A DNA stretch of 32,000 nt from Candidatus Iainarchaeum sp. (GTDB lineage: Archaea; Iainarchaeota; Iainarchaeia; Iainarchaeales; JAZDEL01). Positions 2,044 through 26,230 of this stretch are shown here, piece after piece. Position numbers and translations under genes: made by a program. A model generated the notes under the pieces. The model was not told where the DNA came from, did no database searches, and worked only from the letters and a program-made list of their open reading frames with translations. The stretch is taken from positions 150,001 to 182,000 of the forward strand of contig JAZDEL010000004.1 of assembly GCA_043808785.1 (NCBI GenBank), written 5' to 3'. How positions within the stretch are numbered: position 1 is the first letter of the stretch; the number at the start of each line of letters is the position of its first letter.

Positions 2044-2106
2044 GTGCAGGCTAGGCGGGCTGAGCCAAAGCGAAGCCCCCCGGATCGTGCACGGATCCTT
2101 CCGTGC
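2044..2106 (+). ncRNA. conserved 63-nt structured leader module abutting tRNA +1 (copy A)
   Basis: Near-identical to 15061-15123: GTGCAGGCTAG, a hairpin with a GAGC..GCGAA loop, then CGGATCGTGCACGGATCCYTCCGTGC. It ends exactly at the tRNA-Tyr 5' end. A/T-rich boxes lie 25-45 nt upstream. Confidence 0.5.
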
Positions 2107-2397
2107 CCCGCCTTAGCATAGTAGCCAATGCGTTCGGCTGTAGTTGAGCCTTTCTTTTGCAAAGAAAGCCTCGGGAAAGAAAGGAATTTTGCTTCGCAAA
2201 ATTCAATCAGAATTCCCGCGGCTGAAAGGAAAGGCGATGCGAACCGTTCGGAACGGTTGTGTGCCATTTTTGATGGCATGGCGCATTTGCGAGAGGAAGG
2301 AAGGCTAGTTCCATCGAGCGAGAGCGAAGATGGAACGCGGCACATCCGATCGCAAGCGGATACCGAAAGATCCCCGGTGCAACTCCGGGAGGCGGGA
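2107..2397 (+). tRNA. tRNA-Tyr(GUA) with a ~218-nt intron at the canonical 37/38 position (intron about 2144-2361)
   Basis: Hand fold of all four arms:
- Acceptor CCCGCCT/AGGCGGG (C1-G72, the archaeal Tyr identity pair), with A73.
- D-stem GCAT/ATGC.
- Anticodon stem TTCGG/CCGAA, loop CT-GTA-G|A.
- T-stem CCCGG/CCGGG.
A T-run follows the gene (2398-2412).
Caveat: the T-loop is TGCAACT (G at position 55) and the D-loop AGTAGCCA lacks GG. Confidence 0.7.
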
Positions 2398-3717: not shown

Positions 3718-4617
3718 ATGGGCTGGCGCGAACCTAAGAACGGCATTGCGGAAAGGGCGATGTTTATCCTCACCGCACTTGCGGGGGCAATAATCATAAT
3801 CATTGCCGCGGTGCTGTTCTTCAAGGCGCTCCCGATACTTACATCAAAGCCGACAGGGGAACTGCTGTTCTCCCCGATATGGCAGCCTTGGGGCGGGCAG
3901 TTCGGGTTTTATGCTTTCATCCTCGGCACGCTCTGGGTTACCGCGCTTGCTATGCTGATTGCGGTCCCTGTTTCAATACTTACCGCTGTTTACCTTGCGG
4001 AATATGCCCCCGCAAGGGTCAGGGGAATAATAAAGCCGGCAATAGACCTGCTTGCCGCAATCCCCTCGGTTGTTTACGGATTATGGGGCGTGCTTGTTGT
4101 TGTGCCTTTCATAAGGGATGTGATTGCGCCGATTGCGGGAATTGAGACAACGGGCTACACAATACTTGCGGGCGGAATAGTTCTTGCGATAATGGTTTTT
4201 CCCGTAATAATTTCCGTTTCCACGGAGGTAATTGCCTCGGTTCCGCGGGAATTAAGGGAGGCGTCAAGGGCGCTTGGGGCGACAAAATGGGAAACAGTGA
4301 AATATGTAACCGTGCGAAGCATTTTTCCGGGGATTTTCGCTGCCATAATTCTCGGCTTCGGGCGCGCGATAGGGGAGACAATGGCGGTGCTCATGGTTGT
4401 CGGGAATGTTGCAAAGGTTCCCTCGGGAATTTTCGACCCGGCATATCCTTTGCCGGCGCTTATAGCGAACAATTACGGCGAGATGATGTCAATACCTATG
4501 TACGATTCCGCGCTGCTGCTTGCAGCGCTGATGCTGCTTGCGGGGGTTGTTATTTTCAGCGCTGTTGCGGAGATAACGCTTATGCGCTTCGGGGGGGGAA
4601 TGCATGCACGTGGATAA
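3718..4617 (+). CDS. pstC: phosphate ABC transporter permease PstC
   Basis: Six-TM permease with the EAA-type motif REASRALGATKWETV. Position in the operon. Confidence 0.9.
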   Translation: MGWREPKNGIAERAMFILTALAGAIIIIIAAVLFFKALPILTSKPTGELLFSPIWQPWGGQFGFYAFILGTLWVTALAMLIAVPVSILTAVYLAEYAPARVRGIIKPAIDLLAAIPSVVYGLWGVLVVVPFIRDVIAPIAGIETTGYTILAGGIVLAIMVFPVIISVSTEVIASVPRELREASRALGATKWETVKYVTVRSIFPGIFAAIILGFGRAIGETMAVLMVVGNVAKVPSGIFDPAYPLPALIANNYGEMMSIPMYDSALLLAALMLLAGVVIFSAVAEITLMRFGGGMHARG

Positions 4618-5458
4618 ACGCAGGCTCGAGGAAAATTTCTTCAGGGCGCTGATGCTCTGCTGCACGCTCCTTGTTGTGGGAAGCCTGTTTGCGGTGCTTG
4701 CGGTAATACTCATAAACGGCCTGCCTGCGCTGAGCATTGAAATGCTTACGCAAACCCCGAAGGGCGGATATTATTTGGGGAAAGAGGGCGGGATACTGAA
4801 TGCAATAATCGGCACGATTTATCTTGCAGGCGGGGCAACGGCTGCTGCAATAACGATAAGCCTGCCTGTCGCGCTTTACCTGAACATGCGCCCTGCGAAA
4901 TCAAGGTTCTCGAAATTCGTGAGGAACTCGCTCGACATACTCTGGAGCGTGCCCTCCATAGTTTACGGAATATTCGGATACACAATAATGATTTACATGG
5001 GAATGCGCGCCTCGCTCCTCGGCGGGATAATCGCGTTAACGCTCCTTGAACTGCCGATAATGATAAGGGCGATGGACGAAGTGATGCGGATTGTTCCGAT
5101 GAAACTTATGGAGGCGTCATACGCGCTCGGTGCCACAAAAATCAGGACAGCACTGGATGTGATTGCAAGGCAGGCAATGCCCGGCATAACAATGGCTGTG
5201 ATGCTTGCATTGGGCAGGGCAGCGGGTGATGCTGCATCCGTGCTTTTCACAGCGGGATACAGCGACAATATTCCCTCCTCGCTTTTTGAACCCGTGGCTT
5301 CGCTCCCGCTTGCGGTTTTCTTCCAGTTAGGCACGCCGTTCCCCGAGGTGCAGCAGAGGGCATATGCATCCGCAGCGGTGCTGCTTGTGATGATGCTCCT
5401 GCTGAGCGCGGGTGCGAGGGTTGCGACAAAAAGGTTTTCCGCATATGTTGTGAGGTGA
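4604..5458 (+). CDS. pstA: phosphate ABC transporter permease PstA
   Basis: Permease with MEASYALGATKIRT. Overlaps the pstC end by 14 nt. Confidence 0.9.
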   Translation: MHVDKRRLEENFFRALMLCCTLLVVGSLFAVLAVILINGLPALSIEMLTQTPKGGYYLGKEGGILNAIIGTIYLAGGATAAAITISLPVALYLNMRPAKSRFSKFVRNSLDILWSVPSIVYGIFGYTIMIYMGMRASLLGGIIALTLLELPIMIRAMDEVMRIVPMKLMEASYALGATKIRTALDVIARQAMPGITMAVMLALGRAAGDAASVLFTAGYSDNIPSSLFEPVASLPLAVFFQLGTPFPEVQQRAYASAAVLLVMMLLLSAGARVATKRFSAYVVR

Positions 5459-6923: not shown

Positions 6924-7793
6924 TCATGCTATTAACGCAAGCGCAACGCCTGCGGCAAGCGCGATTGCGGCGCCCGCATACTGGTGCGCGGATATTTTTT
7001 CCCGGTTTATGAGAACCCCGAGGAGAAGGCCGACAGTGGTGTAATTCACCATTATCGCCGCGACTATTGCGAGCTTGTTATCCACAAGCGCAACCGTGAA
7101 AAGCAGCCAGCCGATGGTGTCGAAGAAACCCGTCGCGAGCAGAAGGCGCGGGGAAGAGAAGAAGTTTTTCCTGAAACTGCCGAAGCCGCGGCGCAGAAAT
7201 ATTAGGAGGAGCGGGGCTGCGGCAAGCACGAGCCAGATGAACCAAACGCTGATTGCGGGGGAGGCCTGCCTTGCGCCGAGCGTCAGGAGATAGTTCATTA
7301 TTGCAAAGCTTGCAGCGCTCGCCACGGCAAGGAGGGCGCCTTTCTCAAGGTTTCCTGAAAAAATCGCCGCGGAAAGGGAGGAAACGGAAACAAGCAGCAC
7401 GCCCGCGAAAACAATTGCGATTGCGGCAAACTGCACAAGGGAAAGCGCCTCCCCGAGCAGGGTTGTGCTCAGGAGCACGGTAAGCGGCAGTTCAAGCGCG
7501 AAAACGACCATTACAATTGAAAGTTTTCCCTCCCCCAGCGCCCTGAAAGTAATCATGGAACTTGCAAGGGCAAACAGGCCGAGGAATAGGAGCAGCGCAA
7601 GGTTCTGCGGCACGAGAAGGAGGTGCATATCCTGCAGCGCGAGAGGGAGCAGCATTATAGTGCCCGTTACCGCTATGAAAGCGAGCGCGTGCACCCTGCC
7701 TACCCTGCGCACGCTGCGCTGTATAAGGAAGTCCCCGAGGCCCCATGCGAGCATGGCGCCGAATGCCGCGAGAATGCCGAAATCGAAAGCCAT
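6924..7793 (-). CDS. EamA/DMT-family transporter
   Basis: Ten predicted TM helices in two EamA-like halves. Start MAFDFGIL (7793) is preferred because the shared A/T box ATTAATAT (7842-7849) is too close to the ATG at 7838. Confidence 0.8.
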   Translation of the reverse strand: MAFDFGILAAFGAMLAWGLGDFLIQRSVRRVGRVHALAFIAVTGTIMLLPLALQDMHLLLVPQNLALLLFLGLFALASSMITFRALGEGKLSIVMVVFALELPLTVLLSTTLLGEALSLVQFAAIAIVFAGVLLVSVSSLSAAIFSGNLEKGALLAVASAASFAIMNYLLTLGARQASPAISVWFIWLVLAAAPLLLIFLRRGFGSFRKNFFSSPRLLLATGFFDTIGWLLFTVALVDNKLAIVAAIMVNYTTVGLLLGVLINREKISAHQYAGAAIALAAGVALALIA

Positions 7794-11180: not shown

Positions 11181-11474
11181 TCACTTCCGCACGAACAAAT
11201 TGCACTTGCAGTGCCCGTCCTTCTCGATTTCGGCCTTGTGCCAGAAGCAGGGGCAGATTTTCTTCACGTCTTCCGCCTTGTCCCCGACCAAAGGGCGGCA
11301 GGGGCAGTACCTTGCGCCGTGCTTTTCCTCGTTCTTGAGGAGGCCAGTGATTATCATATCCGTAATTTTATTATCTGGGTTCAGGCGGAACCCCGCGCGC
11401 CCGGCATAGAGCGCGGAATTTTTCTTCAGCGCCTCGGCTTTTTCGCTTTGCGCCTTCCCGATTTTTTTGGGCAT
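11181..11474 (-). CDS. ferredoxin:thioredoxin reductase catalytic-subunit-like protein (FTR/FDR family)
   Basis: Cys pattern CPCR ... CPC ... HCKCNLF matches the CPC/CHC 4Fe-4S plus redox-disulfide motifs of the FTR catalytic subunit. Leaderless ATG at 11474 lies about 27 nt from the A/T box at 11496-11506. Confidence 0.8.
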   Translation of the reverse strand: MPKKIGKAQSEKAEALKKNSALYAGRAGFRLNPDNKITDMIITGLLKNEEKHGARYCPCRPLVGDKAEDVKKICPCFWHKAEIEKDGHCKCNLFVRK

Positions 11475-11520
11475 GACAGCATTGTGCGGCACAAGCATTA
11501 AAAACGATACCTTTAAATAC

Positions 11521-11542
11521 ATTATGACCATATGGTCATAAT
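11521..11542. promoter_or_regulatory. perfect 22-bp palindrome (candidate operator) between the TATA box and the DUF134 start codon
   Basis: ATTATGACCATATGGTCATAAT equals its own reverse complement. TTTAAATA sits at 11512-11519 and the ATG at 11543. Confidence 0.6.
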
Positions 11543-11965
11543 ATGCCGAGGCCGAGGATGTTAAGGTTCGTGGACGCGGAACCCGGCGTTGATTATTTCA
11601 AGCCGAGCGGGATACCGCTTGCGGAGCTTGAGGAGGTTACGCTCAGCGTCGAGGAGATGGAGGCGCTGAGGCTCGAATTCATGGAGAAGATGGGCAAGGA
11701 GGATGCCGCAAAAAAGATGGGGATTTCGCGCACCACTTTCTGGCGCGTGCTGAGCAATGCGGGGGAAAAGGTTGCGGACGCGCTCACAAACGGAAAGGCG
11801 ATGAGGATAGAGGGCGGTGATTACGAAATCAGGGGCACGGGAAGGGGCGCACGCGGTTTCGGGCGAGGGGGCGCGGCTTTCGGCAATAGCCGCGGTTTCG
11901 GAAGGGGAATGAGGCGCGGAACCGGCGGCGGAAGAAACCGCGGAATGCACTGGAGAGGAGGCTAA
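11543..11965 (+). CDS. DUF134 (UPF0251) family predicted DNA-binding protein with RGG-rich tail
   Basis: MPRPRMLRFVDAEPGVDYFKPSGIP ... MGISRTTFWRVLSNAGEKVADALTNGKAMRIEGG is the canonical DUF134 pattern. The C-terminus has Gly/Arg repeats. Confidence 0.85.
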   Translation: MPRPRMLRFVDAEPGVDYFKPSGIPLAELEEVTLSVEEMEALRLEFMEKMGKEDAAKKMGISRTTFWRVLSNAGEKVADALTNGKAMRIEGGDYEIRGTGRGARGFGRGGAAFGNSRGFGRGMRRGTGGGRNRGMHWRGG

Positions 11966-11968
11966 AAC

Positions 11969-12127
11969 ATGGCGGATGGAAAAGGAAGAATGGGCGGAAA
12001 GGCGATAGGCACGGGCGGAACCTGCGTATGCATGGAGTGCGGATATACGGAAACGCACAACCGCGCAAGGCCGTGCAAGACTTGCGAGTGCCCTAAGTGC
12101 GGCGCATTGATGGCAAGAAAGGAATGA
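11969..12127 (+). CDS. small zinc-ribbon protein (52 aa, below track cutoff)
   Basis: Own translation: MADGKGRMGGKAIGTGGTCVCMECGYTETHNRARPCKTCECPKCGALMARKE, with two CxxC pairs. It starts 4 nt after the DUF134 stop, preceded by GGAGGAGG. As I recall, small proteins of this type often accompany DUF134. Confidence 0.6.
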   Translation: MADGKGRMGGKAIGTGGTCVCMECGYTETHNRARPCKTCECPKCGALMARKE

Positions 12128-12159
12128 AGATTAAGAAAAATGAAAAGGAGGTGAAAATT

Positions 12160-12402
12160 ATGCCTAATTGTGACGGAACAGGGCCTTTCGGCAATTTCAG
12201 GAACTGCGTTCCCGCGGGCGCGGAAAACGCCGCGGGGTTCGGCGCGGGCTACGGCAGGGGCGCTGGCAGGGGCATGGGTGCGAGGCGCATGCGCAGGCTC
12301 GCTTATGCGCAGGCCGAACCCATGGACAGGGATGCGGAACTTGAAGCGCTGAGAAGGGAACTGAACGATATAAAGAAAAGGCTTGGCGCGCTGGATAAAT
12401 GA
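12160..12402 (+). CDS. DUF5320-like protein
   Basis: MPNCDGTGPFG start, a Gly/Arg-rich middle and a C-terminal coiled coil (ELEALRRELNDIKKRL) match the DUF5320 layout. SD AGGAGGTGA lies upstream of the ATG at 12160. Confidence 0.7.
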   Translation: MPNCDGTGPFGNFRNCVPAGAENAAGFGAGYGRGAGRGMGARRMRRLAYAQAEPMDRDAELEALRRELNDIKKRLGALDK

Positions 12403-13166
12403 GTGCAAAATGCGCGGTGTTTGGAATGGACACTCTCCTGCTCATAATCCTCGCAACCGTGGCGGACAGCCTTGTCGCGCTTGCGGGAATTTTTACGCTC
12501 GCGTTCAGCAGGGAGACCCTGAAGAAGGTGCTGTTCGCGCTTGTCGGCTTTTCCGCGGGCGCGCTGCTTGCGGGGGCGTTCTTCCATTTGATTGCTGAGT
12601 CTCTCACGGAGATGCCGGTGGACACGGTTTTCACATATGTGTTCGCGGGGTTCGTGCTGTTCTTCATAATCGAAAGGTTCCTGCACTGGCACCACTGCCA
12701 CAAGGGCGAGTGCGAGGTGCACACCTTCAGTTACATGGTGCTCATAGGTGACGCGATACACAACTTCATCGACGGGCTGATAATCGCCGCGGGATTTACC
12801 GTAAGCGCGGGGTTCGGCGCGGTGACAACCCTGCTCATAATAGCGCACGAGGTTCCGCAGGAGATAGGGAATTTCGGCGTGCTTGTTCACGGGGGCTTCG
12901 GCAGGGGAAAGGCTCTGCTCTACAACCTCCTTGCGCAGGCCACATGCATCCTCGGCGGAATTTTCGGGTTTTTCATGGCGCAAAGCGCCGCCGGGGTTGC
13001 GGAAACCCTCCTGCCTTTCGCGGCGGGCGGGTTCATTTACATCGCGGCAAGCGATTTGATACCGGAACTTCACAGGGAAGCGGACATAAGGCGCGCGGCG
13101 GGGGCGTTTGTGTTCTTCCTGCTCGGCGCGGGGTTCATGTTCTGGATGAAGGCCGCTTTGGGGTAG
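12399..13166 (+). CDS. ZIP-family divalent metal transporter
   Basis: HNFIDGL and HEVPQEIGNFGVL motifs. The start overlaps the previous stop (ATGA). Confidence 0.9.
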   Translation: MSAKCAVFGMDTLLLIILATVADSLVALAGIFTLAFSRETLKKVLFALVGFSAGALLAGAFFHLIAESLTEMPVDTVFTYVFAGFVLFFIIERFLHWHHCHKGECEVHTFSYMVLIGDAIHNFIDGLIIAAGFTVSAGFGAVTTLLIIAHEVPQEIGNFGVLVHGGFGRGKALLYNLLAQATCILGGIFGFFMAQSAAGVAETLLPFAAGGFIYIAASDLIPELHREADIRRAAGAFVFFLLGAGFMFWMKAALG

Positions 13167-15060: not shown

Positions 15061-15123
15061 GTGCAGGCTAGTTCGGGTGAGCCCCGAGGCGAACCCGTAC
15101 GGATCGTGCACGGATCCCTCCGT
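15061..15123 (+). ncRNA. conserved 63-nt structured leader module abutting tRNA +1 (copy B)
   Basis: Aligns along its whole length with 2044-2106, including an identical 18-mer CGGATCGTGCACGGATCC. ATTAAAAACC lies about 27 nt upstream of its first G. Confidence 0.5.
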
Positions 15124-15258
15124 GCCCCGGTAGTCTAGCGGTTAGGATGCGGCCCTGTCGGAACTTTTGGGGGCGCGGGGTTCTTGAAACCCCGCTTCCG
15201 AAAAGTTCACAAAAGTTGCGGTGAGGCTGCGACTCGGGTTCGAATCCCGGCCGGGGCG
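15124..15258 (+). tRNA. tRNA-Asp(GUC) with a 63-nt intron at 37/38 (15161-15223)
   Basis: Hand fold of all four arms:
- Acceptor GCCCCGG/CCGGGGC, with G73.
- D-arm GTCT-AGCGGTTA-GGAT.
- Anticodon stem CGGCC/GGCTG, loop CT-GTC-G|A.
- T-arm TCGGG-TTCGAAT-CCCGG. Confidence 0.8.
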
Positions 15259-15383
15259 TTGGCCCATCGAACGAAGCGAGATGGGCCCTGGCCTGATACT
15301 TATTTTCGCAAACCTTTTGGAAGCGGGGGCGAGGCAAACGAGCCCCCGCGCTCAAAAAGGTTTTTCGAATCCCGGCCGGGGCG
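15259..15383 (+). repeat. 105-nt structured insert followed by an exact second copy of the tRNA-Asp 3' end (T54 to discriminator)
   Basis: TTCGAATCCCGGCCGGGGCG occurs at 15239-15258 and again at 15364-15383. The insert contains hairpin GGCCCATC-GAACGAAGCGA-GATGGGCC (15261-15287) and long hairpin 15311-15362. Confidence 0.75.
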
Positions 15384-15456
15384 TAACCTTTCAGCATGGC
15401 GCTTTGCTTTATTAACCCCCAATATTTAAATACCAGTTAGGCGCAATAAAAGGTTC

Positions 15457-26041: not shown

Positions 26042-26115
26042 GCCCCCGTAGTATAGCCTGGACAGTACTCGGGCCTCCGGAGCCCGTGACCGGGGTTCAA
26101 ATCCCCGCGGGGGCG
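26042..26115 (+). tRNA. tRNA-Arg(CCG), intron-less
   Basis: GCCCCCG-TA-GTAT-AGCCTGGACA-GTAC-T-CGGGC-CTCCGGA-GCCCG-TGAC-CGGGG-TTCAAAT-CCCCG-CGGGGGC-G. AATAAAAACC lies about 27 nt upstream. Confidence 0.95.
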
Positions 26116-26230
26116 CTTCGGAAAAAACAAAACAAAAAACGAACCGACGGTTCGCCGGGTTTTTGGGTTTTGGTTTTTCGGGTTTTGTTTTTCGGATTTA
26201 TTTTTGGTTTTGCCGCTTGTTTTTTTGCCT
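26116..26230 (+). terminator. hairpin plus multiple G-punctuated T-tracts downstream of tRNA-Arg
   Basis: GAACC-GAC-GGTTC hairpin (26141-53), flanked by A-rich (26121-40) and T-rich (26160-26228) runs. T5-T7 tracts are archaeal termination signals. Confidence 0.45.

Follow-up and report, generated by a model that had tools for sequence, protein, structure and literature searches.

A candidate modular RNA cassette shared by tRNA leaders, an intron end and a trailer in Candidatus Iainarchaeum

We analysed a 32,000-nt stretch of Candidatus Iainarchaeum sp. DNA (contig JAZDEL010000004.1, positions 150,001 to 182,000; hereafter the window) in which the 3' end of the tRNA-Tyr intron, segment 2302-2361, resembles the leaders that precede two of its tRNA genes. 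The interpretation that we favour, with roughly even confidence in it, is that this segment is a copy of a lineage-specific modular RNA cassette carried in the discarded parts of tRNA precursors, where it would serve as an autonomously folding and probably protein-binding element. Within the Diapherotrites/Iainarchaeota, a lineage of DPANN archaea, the cassette lies in 5' leaders, at intron 3' ends and in a 3' trailer. Two components of this interpretation come directly from comparing sequences: the comparisons show the central hairpin to be under strand-specific, RNA-level structural selection, and they show copies that differ in presence between close relatives, with modules exchanged between tRNA genes and between the leader and the intron of a single gene.

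Anatomy and recurrence of the cassette

Aragorn, run with introns allowed, finds three tRNA genes in the window, Tyr, Asp and Arg (Table 1). The tRNA-Tyr intron extends from 2144 to 2361, and segment 2302-2361 is therefore exactly its last 60 nt. We used the archaeal definition of the bulge-helix-bulge (BHB) motif, a 4-bp central helix between two 3-nt bulges, at both exon-intron boundaries, and the intron that hosts the segment has such a motif at both of its boundaries. A geometric check describes it as a relaxed hBH form (H helix CUGU/GCGG 4/4, h 5/5, h' 1/5), in which the final GCGG of the segment is the intron strand of the central helix. The tRNA-Asp intron forms a perfect hBHBh' motif by the same check.

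The cassette is made up of a conserved AG, a stem of 5-8 bp, an internal loop that is symmetric (5'-Y-GA-G / C-GA-R-3'), a short capped stem whose length varies and a small hairpin that stops 0-2 nt before the processing site. The GA..GA of the internal loop would form two sheared G·A pairs, and the same hairpin is present in the predicted minimum-free-energy fold of every copy. In the intron copy, the stem TTCCATC/GATGGAA carries the apex GA-GC-GAGA-GC-GA and a bulged A, while the GCGG of the BHB central helix comes from the 3' arm of the terminal hairpin, an arm that stops at the 3' splice site. In the window, the Tyr and Asp leaders have in common GTGCAGGCTAG and the 26-nt 3' module CGGATCGTGCACGGATCCYTCCGT(GC), 11 + 26 identical nucleotides in all, with the module abutting the tRNA 5' end; in the Tyr leader this module, which terminates at the tRNA 5' end, is seen to hold the palindrome GTGCAC and the hairpin ACGGA-TCCT-TCCGT. 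Going by the spacing from the TATA element, the Asp cassette probably spans the whole leader from the transcription start. The stems of the different copies are visibly unrelated (GGCGGGC/GCCCCCC, UUCCAUC/GAUGGAA, CUGUU/AACAG and GUACUACU/AGUAGUAC). The leader of tRNA-Arg is short and plain, with no cassette.

For the four leaders of the window type, RNAalifold returns a consensus of three helices: P1, in which the 5' element (GUGCA) pairs with the palindrome of the 3' module; P2, the G·A hairpin; and P3, ACGGA-NNNN-UCCGU, just before the tRNA. In this model the pairing of P1 makes the cassette a closed, compact P1/P2/P3 domain. Reasoning led us to discard a full H-type pseudoknot of the hairpin-X loop with the 5' element, its 1-nt connecting loop being too short; P1 together with P3 is the consistent fold.

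The heptamer AGGCTAG occurs three times in the 32 kb of the window (2048, 2302 and 15065), each time directly 5' of a GAGC..GCGAA hairpin, and the composite pattern AGGCTAG-N5-8-GAGC-N3-8-GCGAA has three matches, all adjoining tRNA-Tyr or tRNA-Asp, against none in 100 shuffles. By plain local alignment the similarity of the intron segment to the leaders is only modest (p=0.036 and 0.014). It rests on AGGCTAG and the GA hairpin; in an alignment made by eye, the 3' part (ATCCGATCGCAAGCGGAT versus CGGATCGTGCACGGATCC) matches at about 12 of 18 positions. A generic stem-GA-stem-GA-stem pattern is not enriched over shuffles and is not diagnostic by itself, the specificity coming from the whole arrangement.

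We built a covariance model from four leader hairpins, including the two of the window (2053-2082 and 15070-15101) and excluding the intron copy, and ran it unfiltered on both strands of 152 kb made up of the window and related loci (labelled here by L numbers). The model recovered the intron copy (2307-2337, E=0.004) and two copies 3' of tRNA-Asp (E-values in Table 1), as well as orthologous and paralogous copies in L014, L013, L001 and L003. Every match with E<0.01 adjoins a tRNA gene, and all but that of L001 lie on the tRNA strand. The copy that begins at 15260 is closest to the Tyr intron copy (local alignment, p=0.002), and its apical stem, within 15261-15287, is missing the G-C pairs.

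Since apical stem lengths vary, the hairpins were aligned on the model. In the resulting model-fitted alignment of nine copies, 87.8% of cells pair, compared with 58% after shuffling (none of 500 shuffles reaches the observed value) and 37-52% when the partner strand is slid. Double changes occur at 7/7 lower-stem pairs, and both GA dinucleotides are invariant in all nine copies and placed to form 5'-GA/3'-AG. Much of the sequence-only reading that preceded this analysis is borne out by these results. It had joined the intron end to the leaders through AGGCTAG and the hairpin, and had listed four hairpins, which the model recovers in full (two of them as seeds) and to which it adds a fifth at 15322-15350; its remark that the trailer copy only approximates the pattern agrees with the missing apical pairs. 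The proposal of a structurally constrained RNA motif likewise gains from the compensatory stems, the invariant, strand-specific GA..GA and an orthologous conservation far above neutral.

Our census covered ~150 kb, ~25 tRNA genes and ~10 genomes. The cassette accompanies tRNA-Asp in 3/3 genomes, tRNA-Glu in 1/1 and tRNA-Tyr in 3/8, and it was not seen on ~10 other tRNA genes examined (Arg, Thr, Met, His, Ser and Lys). An exact-pattern scan of genome and metagenome contigs with GATCGTGCACGGATCCNTCCG gave one true relative, L001, and one chance match, L002, in a high-GC bacterium. L001, a metagenome-assembled genome of 'Candidatus Iainarchaeum', is the only true DNA relative found among species-representative genomes, and scans of viral contigs and BLAST against phage and plasmid sequences returned no related sequence.

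Table 1. Features of the window and of the corresponding Tyr intron ends in related loci
Feature	Position	Strand	Basis or remark
tRNA-Tyr 5' leader cassette	2044-2106	+	Composite pattern, covariance model, RNAalifold
Parts of Tyr leader cassette	GTGCA 2044-2048; AGGCTAG 2048-2054; tandem-G·A hairpin 2054-2081; 3' module CGGATCGTGCACGGATCCTTCCGTGC 2081-2106
tRNA-Tyr(GTA)	2107-2397	+	Aragorn, introns allowed
tRNA-Tyr exon 1	2107-2143	+	Aragorn; C1-G72 acceptor pair, conserved in L003/L004/L005
tRNA-Tyr intron (218 nt)	2144-2361	+	Aragorn and BHB geometry; canonical 37/38 position, strongly structured
Intron-borne cassette (main finding)	2302-2361	+	Composite pattern, covariance model, folds, BHB geometry
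Parts of intron cassette	AGGCTAG 2302-2308; G·A hairpin 2308-2336; terminal hairpin ATCCG..CGGAT
Tyr intron terminal modules	Window 2337-2361; L003 1800-1827; L004 3720-3748; L005 6010-6035
tRNA-Tyr exon 2	2362-2397	+	Aragorn and BHB geometry
tRNA-Asp 5' leader cassette	15061-15123	+	GTGCAGGCTAG; G·A hairpin 15072-15099; 3' module as in Tyr
tRNA-Asp(GTC)	15124-15258	+	Aragorn; gene confirmed by Rfam
tRNA-Asp intron (63 nt)	15161-15223	+	Aragorn and BHB geometry; canonical 37/38
Degenerate G·A hairpin, tRNA-Asp trailer	15260-15288	+	GGCCCATC-GA-ACGAAGC-GA-GATGGGCC, then T-run; E=0.002
Fifth G·A hairpin (not in the earlier list)	15322-15350	+	GCGGGGGC-GA-G-GCAAA-C-GA-GCCCCCGC; E=3e-5
Second copy of last 21 nt of tRNA-Asp	15364-15384	+	First copy 15239-15259
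tRNA-Arg(CCG)	26042-26116		Aragorn

Cassette copies in related genomes

Through neighbouring proteins we fetched seven further tRNA-Tyr loci and one orthologous tRNA-Asp locus; the loci reached through a DUF1554 neighbour were without tRNA-Asp. The ~62-nt cassette of the Tyr leader is absent from five of the seven fetched Tyr loci (L003, L004, L005, L010 and L012), the closest relatives included; the PAP2 neighbours of L003, L004 and L005 are 82%, 58% and 42% identical to that of the window. Gain, or repeated loss, of the leader copy therefore took place within a short time, and the copy is not ancestral. The intron ends vary as well. In L003, AGGCTAG is followed by a wholly different, compensated hairpin (CUGUU-GA-GUGGC-GUGA-GCCAC-GA-AACAG); L004 has another insert in place of the cassette, and L005 has a short intron without it. 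The last ~25 nt of the Tyr intron exist in two unrelated types, A (..CACATCCGATCGCAAGCGGAT) and B (..CGCCGGGCGTGACRGCR), which group the window with L004 and L003 with L005. This distribution contradicts the protein phylogeny and indicates exchange of modules. The type B module also ends the tRNA-Glu leader of L006.

In two other tRNA-Tyr loci the leader again resembles the 3' end of the intron. In L011 the leader and the intron 3' end each carry GUGGCAUC-GA-G..C-GA-A-GAUGGCAC-AA, and perfect blocks of 12 and 14 nt flank differing apical stems, and in L013 the leader and the intron 3' end have a 36-nt perfect repeat in common. This recurrence makes the likeness of leader and intron 3' end a recurrent, lineage-specific and concertedly evolving feature of tRNA-Tyr in the phylum, and extends to independent cases the earlier observation that one cassette precedes both tRNA 5' ends and a 3' exon. 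Directly downstream of the L013 tRNA-Tyr, on the same strand, is a phage-type integrase gene, with a terminase-like gene further on (4301-5167 and 11388-12935), and this tRNA-Tyr is probably the attachment site of an integrated element.

Two side observations concern the Tyr gene of the window. The octamer at the end of its leader, TTCCGTGC (2099-2106), is found again in the trailer right after the T-run (2411-2418); the duplex energy of leader and trailer is better than that of shuffles (p=0.017), and the trailer resembles the cassette-free leader of L003 (ATTTTTCCGCA). The repeated octamer may be due to chance or be the trace of a rearrangement. Within the intron, the 5' 150 nt (2144-2301) contain hairpins near 2147-2173 and 2184-2205 and a three-way junction at ~2237-2291. 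L003 and L004 conserve this structured part, with compensatory changes in it, and a stable intron RNA is one thing that it may be.

The orthologous tRNA-Asp locus, L014, shares its sample of origin with L003; between L014 and the window, the neighbour protein shows 80% identity. The upstream intergenic DNA of the two loci is ~50% identical, while promoter, 5' element and G·A hairpin agree at 80/83 positions, the tRNA 5' half at 35/36 and the 3' module at 19/26 plus an indel. The leader cassette is conserved as strongly as the tRNA itself, and identity of 80/83 next to a neutral flank of ~50% argues for selection at the RNA level. A correlated change from the window to L014 turns the 5' element from GUGCA into GUACA and the palindrome from GUGCAC into UGUACA. 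The 3' module, diverged in this ortholog, is identical at 26/26 positions in the Tyr and Asp leaders of the window and in L001. Orthologs, therefore, keep the hairpin, whereas paralogs within the genome and L001 share the flanks; and the lack of the Tyr leader copy in relatives, together with the swapping of modules between genes, marks the cassette as duplicative.

A leader that is as conserved as its tRNA, has a compact domain fold and appears to run from the transcription start to the RNase P site can also be read as a hitch-hiking small RNA. The cassette would then be a structured trans-acting product of 60-100 nt, with its 3' end made by RNase P in leaders, or lying within an excised and possibly circular intron. 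Small RNAs of Nanoarchaeum equitans are reportedly matured through tRNA processing. Small-RNA and tRNA processing in that archaeon has been the subject of published RNA-seq work (PMC3491384). We consider a small RNA quite unlikely here, as the cassettes show no box C/D, no ACA box and no Rfam family, and paralogs have differing stems, which leaves no obvious guide or target in common.

L006 has a long structured leader on only two of its seven tRNA genes, tRNA-Glu and tRNA-Asp, both of which are intron-less. These leaders contain GUGCA and the G·A hairpin GUGC-GA-G..C-GA-GCAU, with compensated apical stems (GUGC/GCGC versus GCCC/GGGC), and end in a hairpin of 5 bp with a 7-nt loop that abuts the tRNA. 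L001 combines the identical 3' module with a compensated hairpin. On its minus strand, at 6955-7089, we recognised a tRNA-Phe(GAA) with two introns, after ~position 9 and at 37/38, which both Aragorn and the Rfam gathering threshold miss. A partial second copy of the 5' half of the hairpin (GTGCTGCCGAGCGCGGCGAG) lies at 6850-6872 of L001, 48 nt upstream of the full cassette and without a lower-stem partner.

Downstream of the tRNA-Asp of the window, a perfect 21-nt repeat bounds a 104-nt insert (15260-15363; a 125-nt insertion in all) that carries two G·A hairpins, a T-run and a segment like the start of the Asp intron (15314-15329 versus 15164-15179). The insertion is wholly missing from L014, and the ancestral trailer TAACCTTTC comes after the second copy of the tRNA-Asp end. 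We rejected a T-loop intron, as no BHB is found in any register of the 125 nt; the insertion therefore looks like a scar of integration or duplication. An attachment scar of an integrative element would show a direct repeat of a tRNA gene end around foreign DNA and an integrase nearby. Here a tRNA-end repeat flanks an insert that the ortholog does not have, but the window encodes no integrase, transposase or recombinase; an integrase gene does lie beside the L013 tRNA-Tyr. The 63-nt tRNA-Asp intron is itself absent from the orthologous genes in L014 and L006, which indicates a recent intron gain. With its end duplication, inserted pair of hairpins and intron new relative to L014, the Asp gene of the window resembles the intron-gain model of PMC3293823. 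While its 5' half is nearly identical to that of L014 (35/36, as given above), its 3' half differs at several positions of the T-arm and acceptor.

Taken by themselves, several of these observations would suit a selfish or neutral passenger repeat, REP- or MITE-like (repetitive extragenic palindrome; miniature inverted-repeat transposable element) or the scar of an integrative element, that is harmless in pre-tRNA sequence that is cut away and has no role for the host. They include the presence/absence polymorphism among close relatives, the 3' module that is identical in paralogs and in the genome of another species and diverged in the ortholog, the inverted placement at a tRNA 3' end in L001, the 21-nt duplication around an insert with two hairpins, and the integrase gene next to the L013 tRNA-Tyr; mobile-element integration is, moreover, a published route to intron gain (PMC3293823). 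We nevertheless judge a passenger unlikely. The Asp leader is far better conserved than neutral DNA, the GA dinucleotides are invariant and strand-specific on stems that compensate, neither a transposase nor an integrase is encoded in the window, the 152 kb contain no copies away from tRNA genes, and phage, plasmid and viral collections give no matches. The likeness to bacterial REP and IS200/IS605-type repeats lies in a conserved tetranucleotide (here CTAG) 5' of an imperfect, strand-specific palindrome and in multiple copies with variable stems. In REP elements the tetranucleotide is GTAG. Unlike them, the cassette is confined to tRNA genes and no Y1 transposase was found; CTAG is limited to one clade and is absent from the L006, L011 and L013 lineages.

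The same loci could be viewed at the DNA level. Inverted arms of 5 bp around a 7-bp spacer (GGATC-GTGCACG-GATCC and analogues) might serve a tRNA-targeting tyrosine recombinase as core sites. Several lineages have this inverted-repeat geometry, conservation of the 3' module between genomes is perfect, and tRNA genes are classic attachment sites of integrating elements (PMC3293823). A recombination site is nonetheless very unlikely in our view, given that GA..GA is strand-specific, that the 5' element and the palindrome co-vary in the manner of an RNA helix, that no recombinase is encoded in the window and that the two Tyr copies enclose exon 1 and no element.

Known RNA classes and processing signals

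We searched leader-tRNA junctions for BHB motifs with a script that, as a positive control, recovers every true splice site. At five of the seven junctions tested (window Tyr, window Asp, L006-Glu, L011-Tyr and L013-Tyr) there is no BHB partner with H 4/4 and h of at least 2, and we read the weak matches at the other two as chance. These results bear on the idea that the splicing endonuclease removes the leader at a BHB-like motif and that the cassette is a signal shared for this enzyme. The similarity does reach both cleavage sites, as in L013, where UUGCAG-UUU and UUGCAG-CU each end at the cut; the missing or weak BHB partners and a register offset of 2 nt between the Tyr and Asp leaders make this explanation extremely improbable. 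All five RNase P proteins have been reported in Diapherotrites (PMC4919917), and RNase P is the enzyme expected for the leader copies and the splicing endonuclease that expected for the intron copy. Since it adjoins sites cut by two different enzymes, the cassette is unlikely to be a cleavage determinant.

The sequence-only reading had also compared the cassette with the leaders of split tRNA halves. As in the split and tri-split genes of N. equitans and Caldivirga maquilingensis, a conserved non-coding sequence directly precedes the 3' part of a tRNA in a DPANN archaeon. Leaders of split halves reportedly resemble introns. Each such leader is complementary to its partner half, and the BHB forms where leader and exon meet (PMC4033280). 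Here, by contrast, tRNA-Tyr is a single contiguous gene (2107-2397) whose two exons are separated by an ordinary intron, and the two cassette copies are direct repeats; the leader is similar, not complementary, to the intron, with duplex energies no better than those of shuffles (p=0.70 and 0.94 for Tyr; p=0.56 for Asp). A split tRNA half leader was therefore rejected. An older relic, in which each half gene had the same leader and fusion left that of the 3' half as the end of an intron, would account for one cassette before exon 1 and exon 2 of tRNA-Tyr in three lineages. We regard it as highly improbable, for the leader copy is recent and missing in the closest relatives, leader and intron do not pair, and the tRNA-Asp and tRNA-Glu of L006 have the cassette and no intron; in addition, leader and intron copies are near-identical within a genome and differ between genomes, which points to ongoing copying and not to ancient inheritance. 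Together with the junction results, this leaves the analogy with split halves unsupported.

The earlier suggestion of a kink-turn (k-turn) or L7Ae-type motif did not hold either. Tandem G·A next to a regular stem in an archaeal non-coding RNA is reminiscent of the k-turns and K-loops bound by L7Ae in box C/D, H/ACA and RNase P RNAs. The bulge of the cassette is 0 nt (leaders, L003, L006 and L013) or a single A (Tyr intron and L011), not the defining 3 nt, and this rejection stands on the stem register, which covariation fixes. Of the overall sequence-only reading, then, the constrained motif and the shared cassette remain, and the split-half analogy and the k-turn do not.

The window-type leader is superficially like an H/ACA guide, having a lower stem, an internal loop of 6/7 nt, an upper stem and a G·A element. 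In such guides the ACA (ANA) box comes right after the lower stem on its 3' side, ~14-16 nt from the pocket, and the upper stem holds a k-turn. In the cassette the distance over pocket and P1 is 11-12 nt, no ACA or ANA box is present, the ACGGA that follows P1 forms P3, and Rfam gives no H/ACA match. A box C/D RNA of the tRNA-Trp type, which has C and D boxes close to its ends and C'/D' between them, was excluded by direct reading of 2144-2361, where no C (RUGAUGA) and D (CUGA) boxes occur in the required order, and by the lack of an Rfam match; neither C nor D boxes accompany the G·A element. The arrangement UGA-stem II-GAA brings to mind a hammerhead ribozyme, in which a CUGANGA core goes with a junction of three stems and a UH cleavage site; this was set aside because the UGA is closed directly by the lower stem, with no CUGA turn and no Rfam match at E<=10, and 5S rRNA was dropped for want of an Rfam match or a defining feature. 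Across Rfam 15 only tRNA was found, the best other match over the cassettes scoring 13-17 bits against thresholds of 76-95; the cassette regions searched in isolation gave no family at E<=10 either. Nor is the cassette a degenerate tRNA 3' half or T-arm: its UCGGGU/CGAA/CCCG matches to tRNA-Asp are not significant (p=0.89), and the cassettes show no significant similarity to their own tRNAs.

Transposed tRNA introns are a closer parallel. In Thermoproteales, similar short sequences are found among different tRNA genes (Fujishima et al. 2010, as summarised in PMC4033280). Here too the tRNA genes of one lineage share non-coding sequence that is removed in maturation, which implies gain by copy-and-paste; near-identical sequence stands in different tRNA genes, and the hairpin family recurs across genes. 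The Thermoproteales units, however, are whole BHB-bounded introns at various positions, whereas ours is a sub-module of a leader, an intron 3' end or a trailer: the leader, trailer and Asp-insertion copies have no BHB, and the intron copy is only the last 60 of 218 nt. The cassette differs also in its conserved G·A motif, its orthologous conservation and its DPANN host. Another likeness is to MALAT1/mascRNA, in which RNase P, acting at a tRNA or tRNA-like structure, makes the 3' end of the RNA upstream: 5' processing of the tRNA frees the structured RNA that directly precedes it, an arrangement that for the cassette is predicted from sequence. We found no description of a module shared by leader, intron and trailer, or of the G·A motif, in Rfam or in the literature searched. 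Relative to known intron transposition, split leaders and mobile-element intron gain, the new elements would be a sub-module that is also present in leaders and trailers, a G·A motif under selection and a DPANN host.

Elsewhere in the window, the region 3' of tRNA-Arg (26117-26230) has an A-rich run followed by G/T-rich low-complexity repeats of the GGTTTT type around a small palindrome, CGAACCGACGGTTCG. The GC skew, ~ +0.14, is strongly positive over nearly all of the window (1-28000), and the long open reading frames are mostly on the + strand.

Proposed role and significance

In the role that we favour, the sheared GA..GA pairs would give a rigid platform, probably recognised by a protein. 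The cassette and its terminal hairpin would fold on their own and prevent a long leader or intron from pairing wrongly with the body of the tRNA, and the cassette would present the junction, leaving it defined, before being discarded with the leader by RNase P or with the intron by the splicing endonuclease. New copies may come from gene conversion or DNA recombination between tRNA loci, a process to which elements integrating into tRNA genes possibly contribute.

Several points weigh against this interpretation. In five of eight genomes tRNA-Tyr dispenses with the cassette, and the intron copy has been replaced or lost in L004, L005, L010 and L012. In L001 the tRNA-Phe is on the opposite strand and its 3' end faces the cassette tail-to-tail; the intergenic region that holds the cassette has minus-strand genes on its flanks, and the cassette is probably outside the pre-tRNA-Phe in sense orientation. 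P1 and P3 rest on only 2-4 independent sequences. The covariation alignment is fitted to the model and includes its four seeds, which inflates the pairing somewhat, and the role suggested for the cassette draws on anatomy and conservation.

It is possible, though doubtful, that the cassette is an undescribed class of functional RNA in Iainarchaeota: either a protein-binding tandem-G·A domain specific to pre-tRNA-Asp, -Glu and -Tyr and copied in both directions between leader and intron, or a small RNA that acts in trans after maturation by RNase P and splicing.

It is still an open question how introns are acquired by archaeal tRNA genes and how these genes come to be disrupted; the evidence comes mostly from the intron families of Thermoproteales and one population study of mobile elements. 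In the loci compared here, empty and filled orthologous sites, swapped modules and a fresh intron gain are all visible, and the flow of sequence between leader and intron can therefore be traced step by step. The compact, co-varying motif is absent from Rfam and can now be searched for; it is specific to the precursors of tRNA-Asp, -Glu and -Tyr in a poorly studied DPANN phylum, and the cassette provides concrete constructs for the influence of structured leaders on archaeal RNase P and splicing. If copying between leader and intron is real, it would allow direct observation of a mechanism for the growth, or the seeding, of archaeal tRNA introns from leader sequence.

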